NCBI GenBank assembly: GCA_963827235.1
Contig: CAWHAE010000009.1
Span: 288,001-352,000, forward strand
Reading direction: 5' to 3'
Origin: an uncultured bacterium
GTDB taxonomy: Bacteria; Chloroflexota; UBA5177; JANWHV01
Length of the DNA: 64,000 nucleotides
Part shown: positions 7,365 to 33,252 of the stretch, piece after piece
How the letters are laid out: each line of letters begins with the position of its first letter
How positions within the stretch are numbered: the stretch's first letter is position 1
Notes under the pieces: model-generated
The model's input: the letters and a program-made list of their open reading frames with translations, nothing else
What the model was told of the DNA's origin: nothing
Databases searched by the model: none
Position numbers and translations under genes: made by a program

Positions 7365-10300
7365 ATGAGCAGTTGGTTAGGAATGCAACCCAGGCATCTC
7401 AAGCTCGTCACGGTGGGTCGGGTGAAGCTCTGTGTCGATCCAGTGGAACTGGCGGATGCGAGAGATCCGACGGAGCTTCCATCCTTGCCGTGTACGGCGT
7501 TGGGCCAGGATGCCCGAGGCTTCCTTTGGGTCGGCACCCAGAACGGGCCGATGCTCTTTGATGGCTGCTACTGCGGCACTCCGGCCGCTCTATCCGGCAT
7601 GGGCGGCTCCACGATCAACTGCCTCTGCTTTGGTGGGAACGACACCGTGTGGGCCGGCACCGAGGGAAGTGGCATTGCCTGGATTCAGATCGGGCTCACC
7701 GGCCCCCGACTCCGCCGCCTGCTGACACGCTCGGATAGCCTGCCCGGTGACTTGATACACTCGCTGTGCTCCGATAGGCGGGGCCGAGTGTGGGCGGGCA
7801 CGCCAGACGGCCTGGCTCTGCTGGAGCATGGTTGCGTTGCTCGGGTCATGGGCGCGCTCGACGGCTTACCCGCGGCGCGCGTAAACGCATTGGGGTACGA
7901 TACGCGCGATCGCCTGTGGGTAGGGACCGACCGGGGAGTCGTCGTGCTCGTCGATGGTGCCGTCTCTTTCACCGGGGACCAGGCGTGCCCGTTCACCGAG
8001 GACCTGGTTCAGCGGTTCTATTGCGATCCGCTCGGGCAACTGTGGGCCGGCACGCGCGCCGGCAATCTGTTTCGGGCCGAGGTCGGAGCAGACGGCCGGG
8101 TACAGGTAGCCTACGTGCACGGCTGGGGGTCGCCAATCGCCGACATTTGCATGGCTGCCGATGGTCGCCTTTGGGTGGCAACGCTGGAGGGCGTGTTCGT
8201 GCTTACCGCCGGCGTCCTGAGCGATCACCTGGCGGTCGCCGACGGCCTGCCGTCGGCCGACACATCTGCACTCTATTGCGACCGTGACGGCCGCATGTGG
8301 GCCGCGACTCGCAAGGGCCTCGCGGTGCTTCTTGACGTTGATTATCCCGTGCATGTGCTTGTCGGCGCTGATCTTCGCGCGCGGGTGGTGTGGAATATCG
8401 AGCCGGATGCCAACAATTGCATGTGGCTCGGCACGGATAGCGGCCTGATCGCCGTATCAGGTGAAGACTCGCAGGTTCTGCATCTACCTGATCTCCCGGA
8501 GACACTGCGCGACAATGCGATATGGGCAGTGCGCCACGACGGCCTGCGCCAGATCTGGGCGAGCCAACGGCGGAACGGTCTGTTCTGCCTGGACGCCTCG
8601 ACCGGAGCCCCACTGGCCCATATGCTGGCCGACCGCGGCGTGAACGTGATCGCCATGTGCATGGTAGGGCAGCAGGACCTGTGGCTGGGCACGTCGCGCC
8701 ACGGCCTCATCTGTGTCGACATGCGGTTGCGGAAGGTCGTGGGAGAGATTGGCACTGCAGACGGTCTCCCCGAGACGTTGGTGTCTTGCCTCCATCTGGA
8801 CGGCGCGGGTCGTCTCTGGGCCGGTACCCTGTCCGGGCGGCTGGTCTGTATTGACCCCGTGCAACGCGCGATTCTGTCTACGCTCGAGTTGGCCACTCAT
8901 GGCCCTGCCCCCTCGGCTTTGTGCCTGATGCATGACACTCGGAGCGGGCTATGGGCCGGTACCAGTGCCGGGTTGATGAGCATTGATCCTGATCGCAACA
9001 CGATACTCCGCACCATCGGAGCGGCGGACGGCCTCAGAAGCCTGACAGTGCTGGGATGCACCGTCGATGCCCGCGGTCACCTCTGGCTGGGGACGGGATG
9101 TGGCGTGATCCGCTATGCGCCCGACACCGGCACTCTCGCGGTGATCGACCGCAGCATGGGCCTGCCACATGACGAATGCGATCAGAACGCCGTTCATCTG
9201 GACGACCGCGGGAGGCTCTGGATCGGCACCGCCAAGGGCCCGGCGATCATCGACACCAACCGGATCCCCATCGACGTGCCTCCTTGTCCCGTCGTCCTGA
9301 CAGGGTTCCTCGTCATGGGCGAGGAGCGCGACGTGACGCCCGACCTGGAACTGGAAGACAGCGATTGCGACCTGCAGTTCTCCTATGCCGCCGTCTCCTT
9401 CACGGCACCGACGCTGGTCCTTTACCGTGTTCAGCTGGAAGGCTTCGAGTCGGGCTTCTCGTCCCCGAGCACCGAGCGCAGCCGGCGCTACACGAACCTC
9501 CGGCCCGGAGCATATGTGCTCCGTGTTTCGGCGTGCAATTGGGGCGGAACGTGGAGTACGCCACTCGAGATCCCCCTGCGCATCGTCCGCAACCATCAGG
9601 CACAGGAGGCGGAAGAGGCCCTGGAGCACGAGCGGTTCGAGAAGGAAGTCTATCGGGCGGCCGCGACACGGTTGGAGGATCTGAATCAGCGGCTGGCAGA
9701 GGCATCACGGCTGAATGGCGAGTTGCTGGAGCAGACCAGGGCCTCATACGCGGACACGCTGGCACGCCAGGAACGGCTGTCCGCGCTGCAGACCATCTCC
9801 TCGACCCTGGCGGCGACGCGCACGCCGTCCGAGGTCGGCGAGCAGATCATGCGCATTAGCGCCCTCTATCTGGACGCACCTTTCATCAGGATTCGCCTGT
9901 TGAGTGCCGACAGGGCATGGCTCGAGCACGTCATTGCTTCCACTAACGATACGGAAGACCCGCGTTTCCCCAAGCGACGGCCCTATGACGACCAGGTGCC
10001 GTCGGCCGAGGCCGTGCGGACCGGCCGCCCGGTCTGGCTCGAGTCGCCGGAGGAGATGCTGGCCAGGTTCCCAGACTTCGCTCGCAAGATGAGGGAACGC
10101 GGTTTCCTGGCCAATGTGACGCTGCCGCTGCTCACCGACGGCGAGGCGATAGGCTCTATGGGGCTCATGTTCACCGCGCCGCGTCGCTTCCGCGGCGACG
10201 AGCGCGAGTTTCTGCTGGCCGTGGCCAGCCTGGCCGCGCAGGCGGTCGATCGCGCCTGGCTCTATGCGCGGGAACAGAAGCGAGCACAGACGGCGGAGGA

Positions 10301-11060
10301 TCTGGCGCGCATGCGCGGCGACTTCGTGGCCTCTGTCAGCCACGAGCTGCGCACGCCACTCACGGCCATCGTCGGCTATGCAGAACTGCTGGAGGCGCGC
10401 TGGAGCATGCTGGCTGACCAGGCGCGACTCGAGCACGTGCGCCGGATCGTCTGGTCCGCCAACCGGCAGTTGCGCCTCGTACAGGATCTGCTGTTGGTAA
10501 GCAAGCTGGACTTGGGAGCGCCAACCCTTGAGTGCAGGCCGGTGGACCTGGAAATGCAGGTGCAGCTCGCAATCGCCGAGCTGCAGGGCAGCTATCCCGG
10601 CCAGCGCGTGGAGACGGTCGGCCCACCGGAGATCCGGGTACACGCGGACGCGGCACGGGTCAGCCAGATCCTCGTCAATCTCCTGGACAATGCCGCCAAG
10701 TACTCGCCGGAAGGAAGCCCCATAGAAGTGGACTGGAACGTCGTCGCGCCGGAAGCGAGGATACGGGTGCGGGACTACGGGCCGGGCATTCCGGCTGAGG
10801 GACGGCAACGGCTCTTCTCGCGGTTCGGCCGAATCTCCGGGAGCCGGATTCGGGCCGGCCGGGTAGGGACGGGGATGGGCCTGTTCCTGGCCCGCCAGCT
10901 CGCCCGAGCGATGGCGGGTGAGCTGGAGCTCGAAGACACCGGACCGCAGGGGACCATTTTCTGCCTGCGGCTGCCGCTGGTTATCGAAGGGTTCTCTACA
11001 GAGTCGGTCGGTCGGCCAAATGCCGGCACGGCGAACGATGAGCAGGGCAGAAGTCTCTAG
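7365..11060 (+). CDS. Sensor histidine kinase: Reg_prop beta-propellers + Y_Y_Y + GAF + HisKA + HATPase
   Basis: Repeated D..G.LW.GT motifs, YTNLRPGAYVLRV (Y_Y_Y), GAF, SHELRTPLT H-box, NLLDNAAKYS, DYGPGI, GTGMGL. Confidence 0.92.
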   Translation: MSSWLGMQPRHLKLVTVGRVKLCVDPVELADARDPTELPSLPCTALGQDARGFLWVGTQNGPMLFDGCYCGTPAALSGMGGSTINCLCFGGNDTVWAGTEGSGIAWIQIGLTGPRLRRLLTRSDSLPGDLIHSLCSDRRGRVWAGTPDGLALLEHGCVARVMGALDGLPAARVNALGYDTRDRLWVGTDRGVVVLVDGAVSFTGDQACPFTEDLVQRFYCDPLGQLWAGTRAGNLFRAEVGADGRVQVAYVHGWGSPIADICMAADGRLWVATLEGVFVLTAGVLSDHLAVADGLPSADTSALYCDRDGRMWAATRKGLAVLLDVDYPVHVLVGADLRARVVWNIEPDANNCMWLGTDSGLIAVSGEDSQVLHLPDLPETLRDNAIWAVRHDGLRQIWASQRRNGLFCLDASTGAPLAHMLADRGVNVIAMCMVGQQDLWLGTSRHGLICVDMRLRKVVGEIGTADGLPETLVSCLHLDGAGRLWAGTLSGRLVCIDPVQRAILSTLELATHGPAPSALCLMHDTRSGLWAGTSAGLMSIDPDRNTILRTIGAADGLRSLTVLGCTVDARGHLWLGTGCGVIRYAPDTGTLAVIDRSMGLPHDECDQNAVHLDDRGRLWIGTAKGPAIIDTNRIPIDVPPCPVVLTGFLVMGEERDVTPDLELEDSDCDLQFSYAAVSFTAPTLVLYRVQLEGFESGFSSPSTERSRRYTNLRPGAYVLRVSACNWGGTWSTPLEIPLRIVRNHQAQEAEEALEHERFEKEVYRAAATRLEDLNQRLAEASRLNGELLEQTRASYADTLARQERLSALQTISSTLAATRTPSEVGEQIMRISALYLDAPFIRIRLLSADRAWLEHVIASTNDTEDPRFPKRRPYDDQVPSAEAVRTGRPVWLESPEEMLARFPDFARKMRERGFLANVTLPLLTDGEAIGSMGLMFTAPRRFRGDEREFLLAVASLAAQAVDRAWLYAREQKRAQTAEDLARMRGDFVASVSHELRTPLTAIVGYAELLEARWSMLADQARLEHVRRIVWSANRQLRLVQDLLLVSKLDLGAPTLECRPVDLEMQVQLAIAELQGSYPGQRVETVGPPEIRVHADAARVSQILVNLLDNAAKYSPEGSPIEVDWNVVAPEARIRVRDYGPGIPAEGRQRLFSRFGRISGSRIRAGRVGTGMGLFLARQLARAMAGELELEDTGPQGTIFCLRLPLVIEGFSTESVGRPNAGTANDEQGRSL

Positions 11061-22560: not shown

Positions 22561-25500
22561 ATGCAGGTAGACACCTCATTGGATGCCGGTTTTGGCGCAC
22601 ATGTCGACTGGCCTGAGGCTTCCGGTCCGGTCGATCCTGCCAGACTTGCGGCTGCCCAGAATCAGTTCTCGCGGCTGCCGATAGATGCCATTCCCGGCCC
22701 GTCGCCGCTTCCGCCCGGATCGCGTGTGCCGATTATGCCGAATCCGTTGTTCACTGGGCGCACCGCGGACCTTCGCGTTATGGCCGCGCTGTGCAAGTCG
22801 GCTGCTCCGATCGTGGTAGCACTCGACGGTCCAAGCGGCATCGGCAAGACATGCCTTGCAATCGAGTTCGCGTATCGTTACGCTGGATATTTCGCGGGCG
22901 GCGTCTTCTGGCTGAGCTTCGCCGATCCCACAAACGTTGCGATTCAGGTAGGCGCTTGTGGCGGGCCCGACGCCCTCAACCTATGGACCCAAAGAGACGT
23001 TCCGCCACTGCACGAGCAGGTGCGCCGTGTTCGCGCCTATTGGCGTAGTCCGTTGCCGTGCTTGCTTATCTTCGACGGCTGCTCCGCTGAGACGTCGATA
23101 GAGGAGTGGCGGCCGCCGGACGGTGGTAGTAGGGTTCTTGTAACCGGACGCTTCGGACAAGGCCTTTCCAGATCGATTACCTCGCGACTGCAGCTTTCTG
23201 GTCTCTCGCCTGCCGAAGCATTGGAGCTGCTACACGCCTTTCGCCCCGGCCTTCCGACCGACGATGAGGAGCTCGGAGCCATCGCGAGAGAGCTTGGCGG
23301 CGTACCGCTGTCTCTCCATCTGGCAGGTGGCTCGATGAGCAGCTCACGTCGAGCGATTGCGCCCGCCGAGTACCTTGCCGAGCTACGCAGCATGCCGCCG
23401 GCCGCACCCGGCGAGCATAGAGCCGTGGGGTTTGACGAGCGCGACATGCCGCCGCATCTCGCGCGTGCCATTGAGCTCAGCTACGATCGCCTCGACCCAG
23501 ACGATGCTATCGATGCTCTTGCCATCAGACTCCTGGCACGCGCCACATATTGCGCCGCGGATGCGATCATCCCTTGCAGCTTGTTGTACTCGGCAGTCGA
23601 TAAGCCCGAGGCGAGACGCGATGAAGCGAAGCTCGCGCTGGAGAGGTTGATTCGCCTCGGCCTGTCGACGTCGATGGGGGAGGATTCAGTTCAGACATTT
23701 CCGCTCCTCGCGGAGTTCGGGCGCGCGGCCTTGCAAGATCCGTTGGCTCAGACCGATGTCGAAGTTGCCGTGCTGGAAGAGGCGAACCGGATCACTGGCC
23801 TCGCTCATGCCGAACAGGCCGTTCTCGTGGAGCCGCACCTGAGGGCACTGACGGATGCCGCGCTCCGGCGCGGTGACGCGCATGCCGCAGCTCTTTGCAC
23901 GGCCCTTGGCAACTATTTGATGCTCGTCGGCAGCTATGCAAAGGCACAGGACTACTTCTTGCGCGCGCTCTCGGTCGACGAGACCACCTACCGCGAGCAG
24001 CATCTAGATATTGCCGGCGGCCTGCGAACGCTCGGCGGGCTGCAAAGGGCACAAGGCCGTTTTTCGGAAGCCCGCACGCTCTACGAGCGTGCCCTGGATA
24101 TCCGCGAACGCCTGCTGGGACTCGATCATCCGGACACCGCCGAGAGCCTCAACGACCTTGGAGGCCTCCTTCGCGATCAGGGTGAGTACCCAACCGCCCG
24201 CCGGTACTACGAACGCGCCCTGGCTATCCGCGAGCGGGTGTTGGGGCCCGATCACCTGGATACCGCGGCAAGCCTGAACGACCTGGCAGGCGTATTTCGC
24301 GACCAGAACGAGTACCCAACCGCCCGCCGGTACTACGAACGCGCTTTGGCTATCCGCGAGCGGGTGTTGGGGCCCGATCACCTGGATACCGCGGCAAGCC
24401 TGAACGACCTGGCGGGTTTGCTGCGCGAGCAGAGTGAGTACTCAACTGCCCGCCGGTACTACGAACGCGCTTTGGCTATCCGCGAGCGGGTGTTGGGGCC
24501 CGATCACCTGGATACCGCGGCAAGCCTGAACGACCTGGCAGGTTTGCTGCGCGAGCAGAGTGAGTACTCAACTGCCCGCCGGTACTACGAACGCGCTTTG
24601 GCTATCCGCGAGCGGGTGTTGGGGCCCGATCACCTGGATACCGCGGCAAGCCTGAACGACCTGGCAGGTTTGCTGCACGTGCAGAGTGAGTACCCAACTG
24701 CCCGCCGGTACTACGAACGCGCCCTGGCTATCCGCGAGCGTGTGTTGGGGCCAGACCATCCAGACATCGCGGCCGCACTCAACGACCTGGCGGGATTGCT
24801 TCAGGATCAGGGCGACTATGAGGAGGCCCGCTCGCTCTACGAGCGTGCGCTGGCTATCGAAGAACGATCCCACGGCCCGCAGCACGTCAGGGTGGCTACA
24901 GCTCTTCATAGCCTTGCCAGTGTGCTGCGGGATCAGGCAGACTACGGGAAAGCTCGGCCGCTCTACGAGCGTGCCGTGGACATCCGTGAGCGCCTGCTGG
25001 GGCCCGATCATCCGGACACCGCCGAAAGCATCAACGATCTAGCCTGCCTCCTGCGGGCGCAGGCCGACTACCAAACAGCGCGGCCACTCTACGAGCGTGC
25101 CCTGGCAATTCGCGAGCGCGTACCGGGACCTGAGCATTCAGTTACGGCGGCGAGCCTGAACGATTTGGCTGTTCTGCTCCATGCACAGGCTGATTTCCCT
25201 GCCGCCCGCGTCAAGTACGAGCGCGCTCTTGCCATACGACTGAAACTGCTTGGCCCAAACCACCCAGATATCGCGGCCAGCCTGCACAATCTGGCCGGAT
25301 TGCACCAGGATTTGGGTGAGTATGCACAGGCCCGCGAATACTTCGAGCGGGCCTCGAAGATGTACGAATGTACGCTTGGGCCTGAACATCCGGACATCGC
25401 GACTACCTACAATAGCCTTGCCGCGCTGTTACGTGCCCAGGGTGATTTAGCCGCCGCCTCCCCTCTGTACAGGCACGCCTTGTCCATCCGCGAGCGCAGC

Positions 25501-27531
25501 CTGGGCCCGAATCACCCTACCACCGCAGCCAGTCTCAACGATCTGGCGGGCCTGCTGCAGGACCAGGGCGACTACGCGGCGGCCCACAGTCACTACGAGC
25601 GCGCCTTGTCCATCCGCGAGCGCGTGCTGGGTCCGAATCACCCTGCCACCGCAGACAGTCTCAACGATCTGGCGGGCCTGCTGCAGGACCAGGGCGACTA
25701 CGCGGCAGCCCGCGCGCACTATGAGCGCGCCTTGTCCATCCGCGAGCGTATGCTAGGTCCGAACCACCCTGCCACCGCAGCCAGTCTCAACGATCTGGCG
25801 GGTCTGCTGCAGGACCAGGGCGACTATGCGGCGGCCCGCGCGCACTATGAACGCGCGCTGTCTATTCGTGAGCGGGTTCTGGGTCCAGAGCACCCCGACA
25901 CCGGTCAAACGCTTGCCAACCTCGCCGTCCTGCTTCACAATCACGACGACGACCTACTGCGCGCGCGTGAATGCCTGGATCGCGCTCTGCGCATTGGCAC
26001 CAGGTATTTTGGCGTGAACTCCTCGGAGGTCATCGTCGAGCGCAACTACCTTGCGCTTCTGCTAGGCGCGATGGGCGAGCTGCCCGCGGCGCGGAAATCC
26101 TTCGAAGATCTCGCGATCGCGATTGAGCACTCGGAGGTCCTGGAGCCACCAAACAGACAGCAGTTCCAAGGATATACGCAGCAGTTTGCACGTGAGATGG
26201 AAGCGGCATGGACGAGCAATTCGGAACGGGGCCGAAGCTCGGCACTCGGACGTGCTGCCGGAGTGCTATCAGACGTCACCAGGTTGCTTGCCAGGGTCAC
26301 CCAGGCAGAGCGCGCGGTCCTGGAGCGAATCTCGAAACGTTGGCGGGAAGTCGTCACCCGTGAGTCTGCACGGGCAGGTAGGCTTGCCATTCTGAAACAG
26401 GTCGCCAGTCCCTACAACTTCACGATTCCGGTGGAGGGTCTGGCGCTCGTCGGACGAACAGATGTGTTTGAACGGATCGAATCCCATTGGAGCGGCCCAG
26501 GCGCACGAGACTCCTTGCTCATCCACGGTCATCGCAGAATGGGCAAGACCAGCGTGGCCCAGGCCATCGTGGAGCGGTGCCACCTTGGTGACGATACTCG
26601 CCGGATCTACCGCTCGATGGAGACGGTACAGCTGCGGCACGAGGGAGACCTGCTCTATGCGCTGGCATCGGCCCTTCAGCTCGAGTTTCCCGAGTCACTG
26701 CCGAAGCCTCGACGGCACGCCTATAGGTTCTCCGACGCGCGCACGGCCTTTGACCGTTTCCTTCGTCGCCTGGAGCAGGTGAGAGGGCAGGCCCGCATCG
26801 TCATGGTTCTGGACGAGTTCGAACTGCTTTTCGAACGTCTGGGAGCCGGGGAGGCGGAGGAGGCACTTCAGAATCTGCGCGGCCAGACTAACACCTATTC
26901 GTGGTTGGCTCTTGCCCTCGTCGGACTGAGCGACCTCCAGGATCTGCAGTACTCCTACAAGAGTGCCATTCTCGGTTGGGTTGGCATTCGCGTGGGTTTC
27001 CTCGACCACGGCCAAGTCGCCGATGTACTGGCAAACCCCGCGCGTGATCCCGACTTTCAGCTCGAGTACACGCAGGAGGCCCTGACTCACATCGCAGTGC
27101 TGACAAATGGCCAGCCATACCTTGTGCAGGTCATCGGCGACCTGCTGGTGCAGCGCTACAATCGCATCCGCTTCACGGAACGACGGGACCACAGCGGCAC
27201 GTTTTCGATTGAAGACGTCAAGGAGGTGGTCGATAATCCCGCCTTCTACGAGACTGCGAGCGCCTATTTCACAGGCGTATATGGTCAGGCAACGCGCGGC
27301 CAGCAAGGTCAGATAAGCGTCCTCACTGCGCTTGCCCCGTACGAGAACGGCTTGAGCGAAGACGCGCTGCGGAGTGCGGTCCAGCTCGACGACGATACGC
27401 TCAACGAAGCGCTCACGGCGCTGGAACGACACGCTGTGCTGTACAGGAGTGACTCCCAGCTCCTCTATAGCGTTCCTCTTATGCGGCGCTGGATGGAGAG
27501 GACTTACCTCGGCATGAACCCTCGGGCCTAG
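22561..27531 (+). CDS. NB-ARC/STAND NTPase - TPR array - second STAND/AAA ATPase fusion
   Basis: FTGR, GPSGIGKT, LLIFD, LGGVPL; about 16-17 42-aa HPDTA.SLNDLA TPRs; C-terminal LVGR, GHRRMGKTS, VLDEFE, GQPYLVQ. Confidence 0.9.
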   Translation: MQVDTSLDAGFGAHVDWPEASGPVDPARLAAAQNQFSRLPIDAIPGPSPLPPGSRVPIMPNPLFTGRTADLRVMAALCKSAAPIVVALDGPSGIGKTCLAIEFAYRYAGYFAGGVFWLSFADPTNVAIQVGACGGPDALNLWTQRDVPPLHEQVRRVRAYWRSPLPCLLIFDGCSAETSIEEWRPPDGGSRVLVTGRFGQGLSRSITSRLQLSGLSPAEALELLHAFRPGLPTDDEELGAIARELGGVPLSLHLAGGSMSSSRRAIAPAEYLAELRSMPPAAPGEHRAVGFDERDMPPHLARAIELSYDRLDPDDAIDALAIRLLARATYCAADAIIPCSLLYSAVDKPEARRDEAKLALERLIRLGLSTSMGEDSVQTFPLLAEFGRAALQDPLAQTDVEVAVLEEANRITGLAHAEQAVLVEPHLRALTDAALRRGDAHAAALCTALGNYLMLVGSYAKAQDYFLRALSVDETTYREQHLDIAGGLRTLGGLQRAQGRFSEARTLYERALDIRERLLGLDHPDTAESLNDLGGLLRDQGEYPTARRYYERALAIRERVLGPDHLDTAASLNDLAGVFRDQNEYPTARRYYERALAIRERVLGPDHLDTAASLNDLAGLLREQSEYSTARRYYERALAIRERVLGPDHLDTAASLNDLAGLLREQSEYSTARRYYERALAIRERVLGPDHLDTAASLNDLAGLLHVQSEYPTARRYYERALAIRERVLGPDHPDIAAALNDLAGLLQDQGDYEEARSLYERALAIEERSHGPQHVRVATALHSLASVLRDQADYGKARPLYERAVDIRERLLGPDHPDTAESINDLACLLRAQADYQTARPLYERALAIRERVPGPEHSVTAASLNDLAVLLHAQADFPAARVKYERALAIRLKLLGPNHPDIAASLHNLAGLHQDLGEYAQAREYFERASKMYECTLGPEHPDIATTYNSLAALLRAQGDLAAASPLYRHALSIRERSLGPNHPTTAASLNDLAGLLQDQGDYAAAHSHYERALSIRERVLGPNHPATADSLNDLAGLLQDQGDYAAARAHYERALSIRERMLGPNHPATAASLNDLAGLLQDQGDYAAARAHYERALSIRERVLGPEHPDTGQTLANLAVLLHNHDDDLLRARECLDRALRIGTRYFGVNSSEVIVERNYLALLLGAMGELPAARKSFEDLAIAIEHSEVLEPPNRQQFQGYTQQFAREMEAAWTSNSERGRSSALGRAAGVLSDVTRLLARVTQAERAVLERISKRWREVVTRESARAGRLAILKQVASPYNFTIPVEGLALVGRTDVFERIESHWSGPGARDSLLIHGHRRMGKTSVAQAIVERCHLGDDTRRIYRSMETVQLRHEGDLLYALASALQLEFPESLPKPRRHAYRFSDARTAFDRFLRRLEQVRGQARIVMVLDEFELLFERLGAGEAEEALQNLRGQTNTYSWLALALVGLSDLQDLQYSYKSAILGWVGIRVGFLDHGQVADVLANPARDPDFQLEYTQEALTHIAVLTNGQPYLVQVIGDLLVQRYNRIRFTERRDHSGTFSIEDVKEVVDNPAFYETASAYFTGVYGQATRGQQGQISVLTALAPYENGLSEDALRSAVQLDDDTLNEALTALERHAVLYRSDSQLLYSVPLMRRWMERTYLGMNPRA
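24127..25900 (+). repeat. 126-bp tandem repeats encoding TPR units
   Basis: Near-identical units at 24253/24379/24505/24631 and a second set at 25513/25639/25765. Confidence 0.95.
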
Positions 27532-27549
27532 CGAATTAGGGGCACTACC

Positions 27550-29469
27550 GTGAGCAAGCTCGCGCCCGCTTTGACCATCTCTGTAGGGTCGCCCGATACG
27601 AACGAGCGTATCCCCTTGACGCTCAGCCTGTCTCCGGAAGGAGGAGAGGGCGAACAGTGCACACTGGAGCTGCCATTCCCATTGGCAAGGATTCCACTGC
27701 TGCTACGAGCCCTGAGCGCGCGTCAGAATCCGTACTACCCGACCAATGACAAAATGTTCAGATCGGCTGACGAGCGTGAACAGGCCGCCAACCATCTGCG
27801 GAATCTCCAGCTTTGGGACGACAATGCCGGGCCATCAGGCGCGGTGGTCAGTGACGTTCATATGCGCGTGGGACAGATTCTCGGTGCCGCCATACTGGCT
27901 GCCGGGACTATGAGATCAAGCCTATCGACACTCTATGACGCGGCCATTGCCGCCGGAGAAGGCGAGGTTGTCCTGCACTTTGAGCCGAACGCTACGTCGT
28001 TGGCAGCCTTACCATGGGAGCTGGCCTATGATGGGCCGCGACCTATCTTATTGGCGCGCGGCACACATCTTGCTTGTACCCGGATACTTGCCTTTGGTCA
28101 CGCGCTGGCGCAGCAACACAATGACGGCCAGGAACGGCACATTCTTACCGTCGCGCCACACGCGTACATGGACGACGCTGCACGCGCCTTCGAGCAAAAC
28201 GCTCGCATGCGATTGAGAGAGGCCGTGCGCGAACGCCCTGTGGTCGTCGAATCCCTCAATCCGGCTACCATGGAGGCGCTCAGCACGCGCTTGGAGAAGC
28301 AGCCTCGCATCGATGTACTGGACTACTTTGGCCATGGGCGACTCACGAATGCCGGAGGCGCCTTGCTGTTTGACAGTCCTCAGGGCGGGCCCCACCCTGC
28401 TCTGGCCAGCCAGTTGGCCGCTCTCCCAGCGCTGCCGCTGCTCGTCGTATTGCACGCCTGCCACTCCGCCCAGGTGGATATCGACGAGCCACTCGCTACC
28501 GTAGCGGTTGCTCTGAGTGAGGCTGGAGTGCGCGCCGTCATAGCTATGCAGGTGACCATCCAGATGAGTGCAGCAACGAACTACGTTGTGCCGACCCTCT
28601 ACCAAGCTCTAGCGGACGGACGAAGCGTCCAGCAGGCAGTCACCGACGTGCGACGTTCTCTCTTTACCGCCGAGCCAGGCGGCACGAGCTGGTATGTTCC
28701 CGCGCTATACCTGCGCCAACCCGATCGACAGCCGTGTGTGCCCCTACCGAAGCGCACCGCCGCAGCACCTAATCCGTTCGCGGGCCTCGGCGCGCTCGAG
28801 GATTCATCACAGTTGGTTGGACGCAAGCCGGAACAACTGCGGCTATGGGAGCGCTTGCAGGCCGGCGGTCATTTGTCGATCGTTGGACCGGCCGGCAGTG
28901 GTAAATCGGCCATGCTGGCGCTCATCGACGCGCGACGAGAGTCACTGCTTACGCGGAAAGGTGCAAAGCTCGTCTGGCTGAGATTCCATCCGCGGATGAA
29001 CCTGGTAGGAGCCCAATTCACTCTCGCCACGGCGCTCGGTGGTAAGAAGGTAACGGACTTGACGCGTTTCCTCTACGACAGACATCTCTTCCTGATCCTG
29101 CTGCTGGACGATCTGCACCTGCTCGATAAGGGCTCGATCGGACTCGATGTACGGATATGGCTACGGGGTATTGCTACGCCGAGTGCCGGCGCGAAGGTGC
29201 AGCTCGTGGCAACGAGCACGGAGCCGCTCTCCCGTGTCTTCGAGCAGGATGATCCAGTCATAGCGTCTCCGCTGGCCGGCACGCTGAGCGACGCGATTAC
29301 ATTGGGCCCGTTGGCGAAAGACGAGGCCCGAGAGTATATCCGCTCGCGGCTCGAGAATACTCCACTTCTGAGCAGCCAATTCGAAAGCCTGCTCACGCAG
29401 CCACTGTATCCGGGACCGTTGCAGACCGCGTGCCGAATCCACTATGACAGCCTCTGCGAGGCTCAGTGA
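27550..29469 (+). CDS. CHAT (caspase-HetF-like) protease fused to a C-terminal STAND/AAA ATPase
   Basis: LAALPWE, YFGHG (catalytic His), VVLHAC (catalytic Cys), VIAMQ, WYVPALY; NPF, LVGR, GPAGSGKS, LLLDD. Confidence 0.88.
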   Translation: MSKLAPALTISVGSPDTNERIPLTLSLSPEGGEGEQCTLELPFPLARIPLLLRALSARQNPYYPTNDKMFRSADEREQAANHLRNLQLWDDNAGPSGAVVSDVHMRVGQILGAAILAAGTMRSSLSTLYDAAIAAGEGEVVLHFEPNATSLAALPWELAYDGPRPILLARGTHLACTRILAFGHALAQQHNDGQERHILTVAPHAYMDDAARAFEQNARMRLREAVRERPVVVESLNPATMEALSTRLEKQPRIDVLDYFGHGRLTNAGGALLFDSPQGGPHPALASQLAALPALPLLVVLHACHSAQVDIDEPLATVAVALSEAGVRAVIAMQVTIQMSAATNYVVPTLYQALADGRSVQQAVTDVRRSLFTAEPGGTSWYVPALYLRQPDRQPCVPLPKRTAAAPNPFAGLGALEDSSQLVGRKPEQLRLWERLQAGGHLSIVGPAGSGKSAMLALIDARRESLLTRKGAKLVWLRFHPRMNLVGAQFTLATALGGKKVTDLTRFLYDRHLFLILLLDDLHLLDKGSIGLDVRIWLRGIATPSAGAKVQLVATSTEPLSRVFEQDDPVIASPLAGTLSDAITLGPLAKDEAREYIRSRLENTPLLSSQFESLLTQPLYPGPLQTACRIHYDSLCEAQ

Positions 29470-29779
29470 GCCACTCAGGGCGTCGGCGGCGTAGGCGAAA
29501 GAACGATCGCCCGACTCGGTACTTGACCATCGGTGCCAAGATGAAGGGCCGCCGTGAGCGGCAACCCGATGACGGCCACACGTCTCAGGATCAGGAGATC
29601 TGGCCGAGACTGCAGGGTACAGGCGCTGACATCACGCTCCGCACTACAGTTCCTCCCCGGTCGGCTCGTTTTCAATCCAGCTCGGCAAGAGTGCGTGCGC
29701 TCTTATGTACCGCGGTCCGAGATCGTGAGACGGCCCTGTACATACTTCATACCGATCGAAGCCCCATGCTGATCTCGAG

Positions 29780-30334
29780 CTAAGGCAAAGGCGTCGGTGC
29801 AGTAATGGCTGTCGGCGTGATCACGAGCACCCGTGTAGGACCCGGCTCGGCGGGCGCAGGCAGCTGGGTCACCACGACCAGTAGCGCCAGCAACGCCGCG
29901 AAACTAGCCACCAAGAAGCCATGCGCCAGGTGTAGGAAGCATAGTTTCTCGCCCACGGTCTCGGTGTAGGTCCGTCGCAGCGCCAGCCAAGCATTAGCAT
30001 CGAGATCGTTCGTATTGGAGTCCTTGCGGACACGCGGCAGAAAAGTCAGCGTGGCGAAGAACTGGCTGGTCAGCCACAGCGCCACCGGCAGGAAGAACAT
30101 CAGCAGCCACATGTGGGTGACCTGCTTGCGCAGATCACTGAAGGCGAAGACGGCCAGGTAAAACCCCTGCAAGGTGCCCGTGAGGGTAATCAGTTGTTTG
30201 GCCGCATCCTCGACCCTGCCTAGCTCCTGCAGCGGGGCTTCCGTGGCGATCGCGCGCCACCGCTCTGCGGCCGCTTCAGCTCTGTTTTGCTCTCCTGCAT
30301 TTGGCTCCTGGCCGGAAAACTCAGGCGATGACAT
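29780..30334 (-). CDS. 3-TM membrane protein, PycTM/DUF5706-like layout
   Basis: EDAAKQL-TM1, TM2 ending LPR, EK..LHLAH-TM3; ATG lies 1 nt after the upstream stop. Confidence 0.7.
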   Translation of the reverse strand: MSSPEFSGQEPNAGEQNRAEAAAERWRAIATEAPLQELGRVEDAAKQLITLTGTLQGFYLAVFAFSDLRKQVTHMWLLMFFLPVALWLTSQFFATLTFLPRVRKDSNTNDLDANAWLALRRTYTETVGEKLCFLHLAHGFLVASFAALLALLVVVTQLPAPAEPGPTRVLVITPTAITAPTPLP

Positions 30335-30335
30335 A

Positions 30336-30581
30336 TCAGGCTTGATTTCCCTGCACCACCGGCAGGCCGTTGCTGTAACCCAACACGCCGTCGCCGAGTA
30401 CCGGGTTGCTGACATCCCAGGTATCAGGCAGGTCAACCATATTCAGCCGGTTGCAGGTGCCGCAGTAGAATGGCTTTCGCTTCGTGCTGACCACCGCGAC
30501 CACCTTCTCCGGCACGGATACCTCCGTCTCTGTCTCCGCCGAGCAATGATAGCAGCGGATCACGATCTTCATCTGGGCCAT
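30336..30581 (-). CDS. Small Zn-ribbon protein
   Basis: CYHC and CGTC pairs; GGGAGG RBS before ATG 30581. Confidence 0.7.
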   Translation of the reverse strand: MAQMKIVIRCYHCSAETETEVSVPEKVVAVVSTKRKPFYCGTCNRLNMVDLPDTWDVSNPVLGDGVLGYSNGLPVVQGNQA

Positions 30582-31020: not shown

Positions 31021-32820
31021 CTACCGGCGACCGGCGGCACGGATCCGGCCGCTCTGCATCGTTGGCTGGCCTTCACTCCCGGTGCCGCGCGGGTATGGGA
31101 TGTCGGCAGCGAGGATGCCGCGTTGGCGGAGGAGAGCAGCCAGCTGCGAATAGCTGATGCCGTGCTCGAGCGCAATCGTGGATGCATAGCTGGCACCCTG
31201 CGGCACACCTGGCCGGATACGGAACGTCCGACGCTCGCACTCTTCTGCACCGTCCAGTACGACCTCTGCAAGCAGGCCACCCACGCGGGAATCCCCCGGT
31301 GTCTGCGCATTGATCTCATCGACCCGAGCCGCGAGCTCGTGCAGGTGCGTCACGTAGATGGCCCGTGCCCCGAGCATCCGCAAACCGCGGACCACATCAC
31401 AGGCCAGGGCCAGGCCTTCGGTCGCGCTGGTCCCGGCGAGCACTTCGTTCAGCACGATCAGGCTGTTCGGACTCGCTTGGTGGAAGATCGCGGCGAGCCG
31501 TGCCGCCTCCTCGTCCAGCCGCCCCATGCCGGGCTGGGCTCGCTCTGGTGTCGGGAAATGGGTGTAGATGCCATCGACGGGACTCAGCCGTGCGGCACGC
31601 GCCGGAACATACAACCCGGCCTGAAACAGCACCTGGGCCACGGCCACACTGCGCGCATAGACCGTCTTGCCTCCCCGATTGGGACCGGTCAGAATCCAGA
31701 CTCGTCCCTGCGTGGCATCAAAGAGCACGGGATTGGTCACGAGCTCGTCCGTCACCGGGCGAGCGGCGGCACCATCAAGCATGCGGAGGGCGAGCGTGAG
31801 ATTGTAGCTCTCGTCGAGGGTACAGACTCGCTGGTCGATGGAGGCACACTCTGGTCGGCACAGGGGCAGCCCCACCGCGCGTAGCTGGCCAAACAGAGCG
31901 GCGCTGTGGAGCAGGAAGGCCAGCTCGGGTTCGATGGCGCAGAACGTCCGGGTCTGTACGCTCAGGTAGCGGTCGAGCGCCTTGCGCACCGGATCCGTCA
32001 CCTGCTCGAGCAAGGCCCGCAGGTCGCGCGCCAACGGCGTATCGCGTCCAACCGGGGCGGCCTGCACGCTCCGCAAGGGTGTGAGCGGCTGCGGCGTGGC
32101 CGCATTGCCGAGGAGACGCTCCAGCAGGGATACACGACCGGTCACCTTCTCCGCGCTGAGGGCAAGGATCGTCGCCGACTCTGGTTCCAGGTCGCCGCCC
32201 AGGTTGATGCCGACCGTGACGCTCCCCACACGAGCGAGAACAGCGTGGAGACCGGGTAGCTCGGCCTGCAATGCCACGAAGGCCTCCGAAGCGATCACTG
32301 CCTCCACATAGGCCCGGAGGGCCCGCAGCCCTGGCGCCTGAGCCGGTGAGTCCGTCACAGCGTGGTGCGCGAGCAGCACCGCTTCGCAGTAGAGGGTCAG
32401 CTCCTTGAGGCGCTGGATGACCTGGTGGACCACCCATTCGCCAGGCTGTGGGCCGGCCGCCTGCAGCAGCGCTGTCAGGCTGGGCAGGAGCTGCTCGAGT
32501 CGGGCGCGCAGCCGCTCATTCTCGAGCAGGTCCGTCAACGTCGCGGCGCGATAGGCGATAACCGCCGGATCCGGGCACAGCGCTTCAAGCACGTCTCGCA
32601 CAAAGCCGACTCGCTGCGATTCCCCTCCGCTCAGGGCCTGCACCAGGCGATCCACGTCAAGATCGGTGACGGTCTCAGCGCTGATGCCGCGTCGTGTCTG
32701 CCGCACATGGCGGCTCCCTGGTGGCCACAGCAAGCTCAGGGGTTCAGCTCCGAGCAGGGTAGACTGCGCCTCCATTCTGCCTACTGGCCTTGATCCGTTG
32801 CCTCCTATCCCTGTTCCCAT
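31021..32820 (-). CDS. MutS-related ATPase (domain V only, no mismatch-binding domain); start uncertain
   Basis: ILTGPNRGGKT, LFQAGLYVPA, GRLDEEA, VLNE, YVTHLHEL, SYA. Confidence 0.85.
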   Translation of the reverse strand: MGTGIGGNGSRPVGRMEAQSTLLGAEPLSLLWPPGSRHVRQTRRGISAETVTDLDVDRLVQALSGGESQRVGFVRDVLEALCPDPAVIAYRAATLTDLLENERLRARLEQLLPSLTALLQAAGPQPGEWVVHQVIQRLKELTLYCEAVLLAHHAVTDSPAQAPGLRALRAYVEAVIASEAFVALQAELPGLHAVLARVGSVTVGINLGGDLEPESATILALSAEKVTGRVSLLERLLGNAATPQPLTPLRSVQAAPVGRDTPLARDLRALLEQVTDPVRKALDRYLSVQTRTFCAIEPELAFLLHSAALFGQLRAVGLPLCRPECASIDQRVCTLDESYNLTLALRMLDGAAARPVTDELVTNPVLFDATQGRVWILTGPNRGGKTVYARSVAVAQVLFQAGLYVPARAARLSPVDGIYTHFPTPERAQPGMGRLDEEAARLAAIFHQASPNSLIVLNEVLAGTSATEGLALACDVVRGLRMLGARAIYVTHLHELAARVDEINAQTPGDSRVGGLLAEVVLDGAEECERRTFRIRPGVPQGASYASTIALEHGISYSQLAALLRQRGILAADIPYPRGTGSEGQPTMQSGRIRAAGRR

Positions 32821-33252
32821 CGGCTTCACCGTCTCTGGCTCGATCCTTGCTCGCGGGACCACCGTGGTCACCCGGTTGCTCCCGTTATAGCGCACAGAAG
32901 CGCAAGGGAACAGTTCGACCGCGCAATCGCCGCATCGCGCGGACCGGCGGTCCGTGGCTATCGCCGGAGATAGCCCGACGCGAGTGCTCCAGGGCGCCTT
33001 TCGACGTTCATACATGTGGTAGCCTTGCCCTCGGGCTCGTTGTCCAGCAGGGCCGCAGCGCCGATGCTGCCCACCGCACGCGGGACATTACCACCACGTG
33101 CCCGTCAAGCCGGGAGCGAGTGACAGCTCGTGCTGCATCCCTGTGGCCGTGCAAACCGTCAGACGGCCTATCCTGTATGGAGCGGGCACGTCGTCTATCT
33201 ACCCGGGAGTGCCCGCGGCCAACAGTGCGAATCCCATGGAGGGTATGCACGC

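Follow-up and report, generated by a model that had tools for sequence, protein, structure and literature searches.

Two described systems come closest to the pair of genes reported here, gene A (22561-27531, + strand, 1656 residues) and gene B (27550-29469, + strand, 639 residues, GTG start), which lie in a 64,000-nucleotide stretch (positions 288,001-352,000) of contig CAWHAE010000009.1 from an uncultured Chloroflexota bacterium; this whole stretch is referred to as the window. The first is the nSTAND2 two-gene operon (Kaur, Iyer, Burroughs, Aravind, eLife 2021, PMC8195603), presented as a mobile, predicted counter-invader system. Both of its proteins carry an nSTAND2 NTPase (STAND, signal transduction ATPase with numerous domains), predicted to assemble into a toroidal hetero-multimer via arginine fingers, and one of the NTPases is eroded and fused to GT4 or HEPN. 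The second is the CARD-NLR group (NLR, nucleotide-binding leucine-rich repeat protein), represented by the type II gasdermin system of Lysobacter (Wein et al. preprint, PMC10312443) and by LypABC of Caulobacter (Nat Microbiol 2026, PMC13236601). In the latter, LypA is a protease with a C-terminal ATPase-like domain and LypB is an Orc1-like AAA+ NLR with TPR-like repeats. CARD-NLR systems are reported to be rare, are not always in defence islands and have been tested by mutation, and the recruitment domain can sit after the NLR repeats.

Gene A encodes, in order, a leader, an NB-ARC-like NTPase, a TPR array, a linker and a second STAND/AAA+ module, while gene B encodes an N-terminal domain, a CHAT caspase-like protease and a small STAND-type NTPase. 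The initial annotation, made from the sequence alone, had noted two co-oriented genes 18 bp apart with three P-loops, and we place these at residues 90-97 and 1323-1330 of A and 446-453 of B. It had further described A as nearly devoid of an N-terminal effector and equipped with a second complete ATPase after the TPRs, and B as an intact CHAT His/Cys dyad joined to a minimal, repeat-free ATPase. Each of these points was borne out: approximately 60-85 residues without a Pfam family match precede the first P-loop of A, its second ATPase has a Walker A, an LDEFE Walker B and a Pfam AAA_22 match (32.3 bits against a cut-off of 27), and His262 and Cys304 of B, together with its Walker A Gly and Lys, are invariant in 15/15 aligned family members. 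We find that the two C-terminal NTPases, one on each protein, are an ancient, co-evolving and probably hetero-oligomeric pair. The NB-ARC-TPR receptor and the CHAT protease appear, from sequence comparison, to be swappable plug-in parts on this constant pair.

The evidence for constancy comes from the phylum of the window, in which 401 genomes were searched with an alignment of the A module. Matches at E<=1e-20 were found in 44 of the 401, the window's own genome counted. The surroundings of all 44 matches with E<=2.2e-40, the window's own excluded, were fetched; 9 of these include loci chosen for a known nearby B-like match, and the other 35 were fetched separately. All were scanned with self-built hidden Markov models of the module and of the B N-terminus, CHAT domain and NTPase. 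In 37 of the 44 loci the module gene has a second, smaller P-loop NTPase gene no more than 2.5 kb away, and the other seven (L101, L102, L114, L116, L123, L124 and L128) have a contig end on the relevant side of the module gene. The partner NTPase is present in all 37 evaluable loci. Partner genes encode 190-690 residues, most of them 280-530, and are usually upstream and co-oriented, divergent in a class of 1600-1700-residue FG-GAP proteins and sometimes downstream. By Pfam the partners are nSTAND1, nSTAND2, AAA_35 or AAA_22. An Atlas look-up returned nothing beyond generic AAA_22, nSTAND1 and AAA_35 clusters.

What is fused to the two NTPases varies. Partners carry CHAT (L098, L126, L127, L130), Trans_reg_C (L125, L135, L141), EAD7 (L143), HTH_3 (L115) or NNH2 (L097), and the module proteins of paired loci carry FG-GAP propellers, TPR, FGE-sulfatase, WD40, HEAT, TCAD9 or RelA/SpoT-TGS-ACT parts. 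Walker A is kept in 38/38 modules and 37/38 partners. One locus (L145, 1489-4749) has a RelA/SpoT-type unit (HD, synthetase, TGS and ACT) on its module with a small NTPase gene adjacent, a fusion that could link (p)ppGpp metabolism to the two-NTPase chassis.

Module and partner also share their history. Pairwise distances are correlated over 38 pairs (Mantel r 0.80; 0 of 2000 permutations as high), a value that overstates the case because related genomes are not independent, so that the correlation indicates co-inheritance as a unit and falls short of formal proof of co-evolution. The maximum-likelihood trees of module and partner have their major clades in common, with one discordant row (L104). 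On both trees the window's proteins group with L029 and L032 with full support, and this clade adjoins the CHAT-less pairs of L096, L097 and L100; on either tree the label of being CHAT-fused needs three changes. BLASTP between the two C-terminal ATPases of A and B gave no match, and hhalign aligned the P-loop cores of the module and the B NTPase over 122 columns at 95% probability. By this profile comparison the two cores are distant paralogues.

Close relatives of B were found on four metagenome contigs (L029, L030, L031 and L032). An A-type module lies directly upstream in 5/5 B-like copies with readable upstream DNA, namely the window, L029 twice, L031 and the second copy of L032; the count leaves aside L030, which duplicates L029, and the first copy of L032, which is cut. 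L029 encodes the tail of an A-type module fused in frame to a B-like protein, then a 1465-residue homologue of A, then a second B-like gene that overlaps the homologue by 4 nt. The homologue is 44-47% identical to A over its whole length, the second ATPase included. In the fusion (L029 1-2391, and L030 2-2398, which repeats the first part of L029) the A-type module tail reads through into the B-like CHAT-NTPase without a stop or a change of frame. L032 has a B-like gene (cut), a 188-residue open reading frame (ORF), a 548-residue SEFIR/TIR protein and a B-like gene overlapping by 8 nt, and the C-terminal 383 residues of the SEFIR/TIR protein are 48% identical to A 1274-1654. Diverged copies stand in tandem B-A-B arrays in L029 and L032. 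Comparison of these loci indicates that what stays constant of A beside B is its C-terminal module and not its NB-ARC-TPR receptor. In L031 an A-type module tail and a stop precede a B-like gene whose reading frame changes partway, the N-terminal domain (239-622) being in a different frame from CHAT and NTPase (567-2135); the gene is a frameshifted pseudogene, or else the sequence contains an error.

A search of A 1270-1656 against 1.84 billion representative proteins returned 2718 relatives at E<=1e-3 and 232 at E<=1e-30. Among the 149 matches listed, the module sits, as judged by eye, at the C-terminal end of proteins of 169-2025 residues; four of these have two module stretches, of which the better is listed. 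Pfam was run on the 53 best-scoring of those listed, five short ones omitted. A STAND P-loop with TPRs precedes the module in P0033, P0035 and P0036 (NACHT-TPR-module, 1720 residues), TPRs with a longer N-terminus without a match in P0028 and P0039, CHAT-NACHT-TPR in P0027 and caspase-NB-ARC-TPR in P0030. SEFIR/TIR (P0031; PADLOC bSEFIR, 1e-46), REC with sigma54 AAA (P0038) and WD40 (P0058, P0080) take the same position, as does a SMODS-associated NUDIX domain (P0068), which matches PADLOC models of effectors of the CBASS type (cyclic oligonucleotide-based antiphage signalling system) and sits on a more distant module (37% identity). HAMP, PAS and VWA parts also occur, along with many regions without a Pfam match. 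The combination seen in A, of STAND P-loop, TPRs and module, recurs in at least five further representatives among the matches listed. P0036 and P0022, a member of the B family, both have a longest contig of 34,861 bp and may be neighbours on a single contig. No module match turned up in the four genomes from which L001, L003, L004 and L007 come, nor at E<=1e-30 in 301 genomes of the phylum of G402, a sample that is not proof of absence.

A physical contact between the two NTPases is supported, not shown, by structure prediction. The A module (387 residues) and B 396-639 were modelled together in three runs, with three controls. The interaction prediction score from aligned errors (ipSAE) was 0.77 (runs of 0.75, 0.79 and 0.77) and the best control reached 0.00, although part of this score may reflect likeness to AAA+/ORC interfaces, which are common among solved structures. 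The same mark is attained by 116 of 157 solved complexes and by 2 of 215 mismatched pairs. The runs have at least 76% of contacts in common, with a predicted local distance difference test (pLDDT) value of at least 79 for the partner. In the modelled interface B 536-546 and 559-582 face the Walker A region of the module, module residues 81-87 and the Walker B Asp/Glu (1418-1419). B Arg539 (nt 29164-29166) lies within this predicted interface, its equivalent is kept in 38/39 partner NTPases, and in the model it resembles a trans arginine finger.

These results bear on several statements of the initial annotation. It had allowed that the genes might not be linked elsewhere, which the upstream module of the close copies and the 37 paired loci contradict, and that A might be an assembly chimera, which is countered by the recurrence of the NB-ARC-TPR-module build in the independent 47%-identical protein of L029. 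Modelling of the two C-terminal ATPases together, which it had put forward, gave the interface above. Its central idea, a split sensor/executor pair coupled through the C-terminal ATPases, stands as far as the coupling goes, with adjacency, in-frame fusion, mirrored trees and the complex model in its favour; the sensor half did not hold as a fixed member, since the NB-ARC-TPR part is swappable and not constant.

Compared with the nSTAND2 operon, the present pair has the same kind of core, two adjacent STAND NTPase genes as the constant element with variable fused domains, and the small partners match Pfam nSTAND2 in L107, L111, L113, L125, L135, L141 and L143. It appears to work like that operon but lacks three of its defining features. 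Neither the A module nor the B NTPase has a PF20702 match at E<=1; Walker A and B are kept in both window NTPases, whereas the published system has one eroded; and the fusions here are CHAT and a whole NB-ARC-TPR receptor, with no GT4 or HEPN fusion seen. CARD-NLR is, by analogy, the closest tested counterpart of A-B. Going by the published descriptions, it differs in having a trypsin-like protease where B has a CHAT cysteine protease, in coupling via CARD-like domains rather than, as predicted for A-B, NTPase to NTPase, with one nucleotide-binding oligomerization domain (NOD) in the receptor, and in the LypA ATPase, which is without Walker motifs whereas the B NTPase keeps them.

Further systems each have only one element in common with A-B. 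The EACC1-caspase system (Kaur et al., eLife 2020, PMC7159879) likewise consists of two genes, the 3' one of which encodes a caspase-superfamily protease at the N-terminus and then variable parts, possibly STAND NTPases; its 5' gene encodes the small single-pass membrane protein EACC1, in contrast to the 1656-residue A, and the A-B operon has no transmembrane partner. In Avs proteins with protease-effector modules (bioRxiv 10.1101/2025.11.14.688446), repeat-sensor STAND NTPases drive a fused protease on binding of a phage protein, and this work together with a STAND survey (bioRxiv 10.64898/2026.01.04.697583) places caspase-like N-termini on Apaf-1-like bacterial STANDs. Avs is a single polypeptide with one NOD, whereas here the receptor has two NODs and the protease is carried by another protein that has a NOD itself. 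Csx29 (Craspase) and SAVED-CHAT have the protease fold and conserved His/Cys dyad of B, but they are switched on by an RNA-guided complex or cyclic nucleotides, whereas the regulator in B is the fused NTPase, and no SAVED, TPR or Cas partner stands beside the protease in B. The architecture had not been recognized as a named system in the initial annotation. No PADLOC model covers it, and we found no paper in which a CHAT-NOD protein is paired with an NB-ARC-TPR receptor that has a second NOD, although figures or supplements of catalogue papers may list one; the Kaur 2021 operon, as a prediction, and CARD-NLR/LypABC, as a tested system, are precedents for the design.

The A module (residues 1270-1656, 26368-27528, + strand) comprises an NTPase, a helical domain and a winged helix, with Walker A GHRRMGKT at 1323-1330 (nt 26527-26550) and Walker B LDEFE at 1417-1421 (nt 26809-26823). 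Pfam ATPase_2 (22.2 against 33.2 bits) and AAA_16 both match below their cut-offs. Its AlphaFold model has a pLDDT of 89.8 and a predicted template modelling score of 0.88. Foldseek placed 2qen (TMq 0.65 / TMt 0.71, E 3e-12) and 2fna (E 1e-9) at the top over the whole length, followed by Orc1/Cdc6 and RuvB, with the ZAR1 resistosome and CED-4 lower, and the first two were also the best matches of the sequence profile (2qen at 1.5e-5). The fold matches and the agreeing profile together identify the module as a full NOD. The two top structures are archaeal ATPase_2-type STAND ATPases that are stand-alone proteins, whereas the A module is part of a larger one. This branch has been called SWACOS/MNS, reportedly by Leipe et al. 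2004. Weak ArsR/IclR-type matches occur in the module family, and the fold also matches DNA-bound Orc1.

The receptor half of A begins with the leader (residues 1-85, 22561-22815, + strand), which has no recognizable effector domain and in which conservation with the L029 homologue starts at residue 8. Its NB-ARC-like NTPase (residues ~64-420, 22750-23820, + strand) was delineated by motifs, Walker A GPSGIGKT at 90-97 (nt 22828-22851), LLIFDG at 168-173, VTGR at 194-197 and GVPLSL at 247-252, and by the NCBIfam family FxSxx_TPR (NF040586), which matches residues 61-775 with 538 bits against a curated cut-off of 300, the TPRs supplying much of this score. The NB-ARC assignment rests on the VTGR and GVPLSL motifs and on this family match. 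FxSxx-COOH peptide-maturation systems comprise a precursor peptide and a radical SAM enzyme as companions; no radical SAM or related family was found in the 15 neighbouring ORFs scanned, so that the companions of such a system were not seen.

The TPR array (Pfam TPR_12/TPR_10, residues ~440-1190, 23878-26130, + strand) contains 15 units in an exact 42-residue phase at residues 508-1137. Within it the DNA has two blocks of 126-bp (42-codon) tandem repeats on the + strand, one at 24081-24800 (5.7 copies, 90% identity) and one at 25476-25886 (3.3 copies, 89% identity). From these identities the amplification looks recent, and repeats approximately 90% identical would be comparable to those of fast-evolving NLR sensors. 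The bin is built from short reads, and the repeat copy number could be mis-assembled. The linker (residues 1191-1269, 26131-26367, + strand) has no family match.

Between the genes, the spacer (27532-27549, + strand, 18 nt) holds an AGGGG ribosome-binding-like motif a few bases 5' of the GTG start of B. The N-terminal domain of B (residues 1-124, 27550-27921, + strand), modelled as three strands followed by helices, has no Pfam match and is common to the CHAT homologues of its subfamily. A shared adaptor of the effector-associated domain (EAD) type between A and B was considered and rejected, as the two N-termini show no similarity. The protease (residues 125-400, 27922-28749, + strand) matches Pfam CHAT (PF12770) over 125-374, above cut-off (62.4 bits against 24). 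Its dyad is formed by GHG at 261-263 and HAC at 302-304, with His262 at nt 28333-28335 and Cys304 at nt 28459-28461. The small NTPase (residues 401-639, 28750-29466, + strand) spans approximately 230 residues with no repeats and has Walker A GPAGSGKS at 446-453 (nt 28885-28908) and LLDD at 518-521; its AAA_16 and nSTAND1 matches are under cut-off. In the whole-B model (pLDDT 82.9) Foldseek matched the first 400 residues to Csx29, SAVED-CHAT and separase (8eex, 8eey, 7zoq and 7y84, aligned over 410-426 columns; 8tl0 also matched) and the last 250 to Orc1/Cdc6.

A search of 5.8 billion proteins gave 18 relatives of B at 37-50% identity, and the family alignment holds B and 14 of them, four shorter ones being omitted. 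Both A and B have clear full-length homologues, which identifies them as real genes rather than chance ORFs. No second full-length B was found in the 401 genomes of the phylum, which gave CHAT-only or NTPase-only matches instead, and in a scan of genome contigs the B alignment picked out 8 loci that resemble it remotely and in CHAT alone (27-36%) and are uninformative on linkage. A search for longer fused forms of B returned one unrelated CHAT-propeller protein and no module fusion, which is weak evidence. Other CHAT relatives of B include a CHAT-EAD2-SAVED protein and a CHAT protein beside a NACHT-FGE-sulfatase protein (L108 5137-7674; L109 7652-12180).

The genome bin measures 8.0 Mb in 21 contigs and is 95.9% complete; four genomes of the same genus have 4.4-5.4 Mb, and the bin may be mixed. 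Since both genes are on one contig, such mixing would not affect the A-B pair. A and B are each single-copy in this genome. Neither was found in the four same-genus genomes, and comparison with these gave scattered 63-87% DNA matches and no conserved flanks. The gene directly before A encodes a GH130 enzyme. GC content at third codon positions (GC3) is 0.70 for A and 0.67 for B against 0.75-0.86 for most neighbours, and the segment 21351-30436 (GH130, A, B and a 218-residue ORF) has a GC of 0.61-0.63 and a GC3 of 0.67-0.73, lower than most surrounding genes. No tRNA, integrase or flanking direct repeats marking an island were found at the locus, and promoter and terminator scans gave results at chance level. 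A possible third gene, the ORF at 29466-29783 that overlaps the stop of B, was rejected, being Arg-rich and of low complexity, without a family and absent downstream of B-like genes elsewhere. The 218-residue ORF (29780-30436, - strand, GC 0.613), convergent on B, has hydrophobic stretches and no family match, and nothing comparable was seen after the B-like genes elsewhere. Further out lie a 664-residue protein (31021-33015, - strand) in which a MutS domain V ATPase (95.6 bits) stands alone, mismatch-binding domains being absent, and a 1231-residue sensor histidine kinase (7365-11060, + strand) with Reg_prop propeller repeats, Y_Y_Y and GAF.

In the apoptosome (Apaf-1/CED-4 and caspase) and in plant sensor/helper NLR pairs, a repeat-bearing NOD receptor activates a caspase-type protease or labour is divided between two NODs. 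Recruitment there occurs through CARD-CARD contacts or helper-NLR networks, and neither is known to rely on a mixed contact between a NOD and the NOD of the protease subunit. A lacks an N-terminal effector and has two NODs, and the protease is on a separate protein. We propose that A and B form a single two-protein, three-NTPase unit of the NLR/apoptosome kind, a proposal whose chances we put at about even. Its core would be a hetero-oligomer of two distantly related partners, the ATPase_2/Orc-like module in which A ends and the small nSTAND1-like NTPase in which B ends. The TPR array would bind the trigger, a protein most likely supplied by a phage or another invader, and the NB-ARC domain would oligomerize and cluster the C-terminal modules. 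The clustered modules would assemble with the B NTPase in an ATP-dependent manner, Arg539 acting like a trans arginine finger, and the CHAT domains, brought together like caspase-9 on the apoptosome, would become active. The protease would then cleave its targets and the cell would stop growing or die. As no substrate gene lies in the operon, the protease would act on proteins of the host or on A. A more specific arrangement, which we offer tentatively and think less probable than not by some way, is a mixed ring in which the second NOD of the receptor alternates with the protease NOD and Arg539 reaches in trans into the ATP site of the receptor, with no death-fold adaptors. The executor would in such a ring control how the receptor turns over ATP and thereby how long the death signal lasts.

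A defence role for A-B is plausible, judging from relatives embedded in BREX loci: in L100 (1754-14778) the NTPase pair lies between PglZ and PglX/BrxC, and in L101 (2472-9709) the module gene adjoins PglZ and BrxL. Clear defence neighbours were found in 7/39 loci, with 120 of 134 candidate flanking ORFs scanned, and comprise HEC-06/SspE-like, BREX twice, ThsB, ShosA, AbiEi and a DUF1156 methylase with a PLD helicase. Seven further loci have ambiguous matches to kinases, mad genes, pVip or RtcR.

Several observations weigh against the proposed immune unit. The count of defence neighbours stands without a control set, PADLOC v2 gave no system-level match and only generic 'chat' and 'TPR' matches, and the window flanks (GH130, GT4, alpha/beta hydrolase, MMPL, MutS-V-like ATPase and mandelate-racemase-like enzyme) include no known defence gene. 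The first P-loop of A has LLIFDG as its Walker B, with the second acidic residue missing, and Pfam NB-ARC scores 21.9 bits, under its cut-off of 23.5. The complex model was computed from our own alignments, and the bin has an estimated contamination of 9.1%. In addition, small NTPases of relatives carry DNA-binding outputs (Trans_reg_C, HTH_3) and modules of relatives carry RelA/SpoT or REC-sigma54 parts, and these fusions mark the pair family as a general signalling chassis rather than a purely immune one.

The last points are also the strength of the best-placed alternative, in which the same two-NTPase chassis serves as a housekeeping or developmental switch, with regulated proteolysis on a cellular cue, like HetF-type CHAT or MalT/AfsR-type STAND proteins. 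The flanks look like housekeeping genes, PAS and HAMP parts join those just named on the modules, B has a weak HetF match (1.3e-8, far under cut-off), and defence neighbours are as few as counted above. We nevertheless consider a non-immune switch unlikely. The immune-type parts fused to modules speak against it, as the closest relatives carry bSEFIR and caspase/CHAT-STAND-TPR, with the CBASS-type Sa_NUDIX on the more distant module, and so do the BREX-embedded pairs, the patchy distribution with neither gene in the four congeners, the diverged tandem B-A-B arrays and the recent-looking amplification of the TPR repeats.

Linkage, co-evolution and the interface give no sign to the interaction, and they would serve equally for an inhibitory pairing of the guard or toxin-antitoxin kind, in which the A module holds the CHAT protease off until a trigger releases B; a recruitment domain located after the repeats can serve as a brake. 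The in-frame module-B fusion of L029/L030 fits a permanent complex more easily than release, and Walker A and B are kept in both NTPases, as expected for an active assembly switch, so that we regard inhibition as rather improbable.

It is a slim prospect that the module and small NTPase are themselves the true sensor, for instance of nucleic acid via the winged helix in the manner of Orc/Cdc6, with NB-ARC-TPR and CHAT as cargo. The winged-helix end, the ArsR/IclR-type matches and the fold match to DNA-bound Orc1 would suit such a role, as would the plain effectors (SEFIR, NUDIX) that occupy the same N-terminal position in other members. However, most module proteins carry ligand-binding repeats (TPR, WD40, FG-GAP, HEAT, FGE), and a winged helix is standard in every STAND NOD and need not bind DNA. 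That A and B are two independent single-gene systems and merely neighbours can hardly be credited, for although each protein has its own NTPase and ordinary sequence comparison of the C-terminal parts is empty, the adjacency in both close and wider loci, the in-frame fusion, the overlapping stop/start codons, the parallel trees and the complex model, which stood up to its controls, all contradict it.

NLR-type immunity is usually described as having one NOD per receptor, with effectors recruited via death-fold or TIR adaptors. The A-B locus suggests another solution, in which an NB-ARC-TPR receptor is wired to a second NOD that is partnered by a third NOD on a caspase-like protease. Approximately one in ten genomes of the phylum sample carries the co-inherited NTPase pair with swappable input and output domains, a family that PADLOC v2 models do not capture. 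Should the mixed ring be correct, the two-NOD chassis would serve as a general platform onto which transcription-factor, EAD, TIR/SEFIR, NUDIX and RelA/SpoT parts have each been fitted. If the NOD-NOD contact is real, A and B would provide a simple two-gene model, expressible in a laboratory host, for hetero-oligomeric STAND assembly, for protease switching and for the origin of sensor/helper NLRs.

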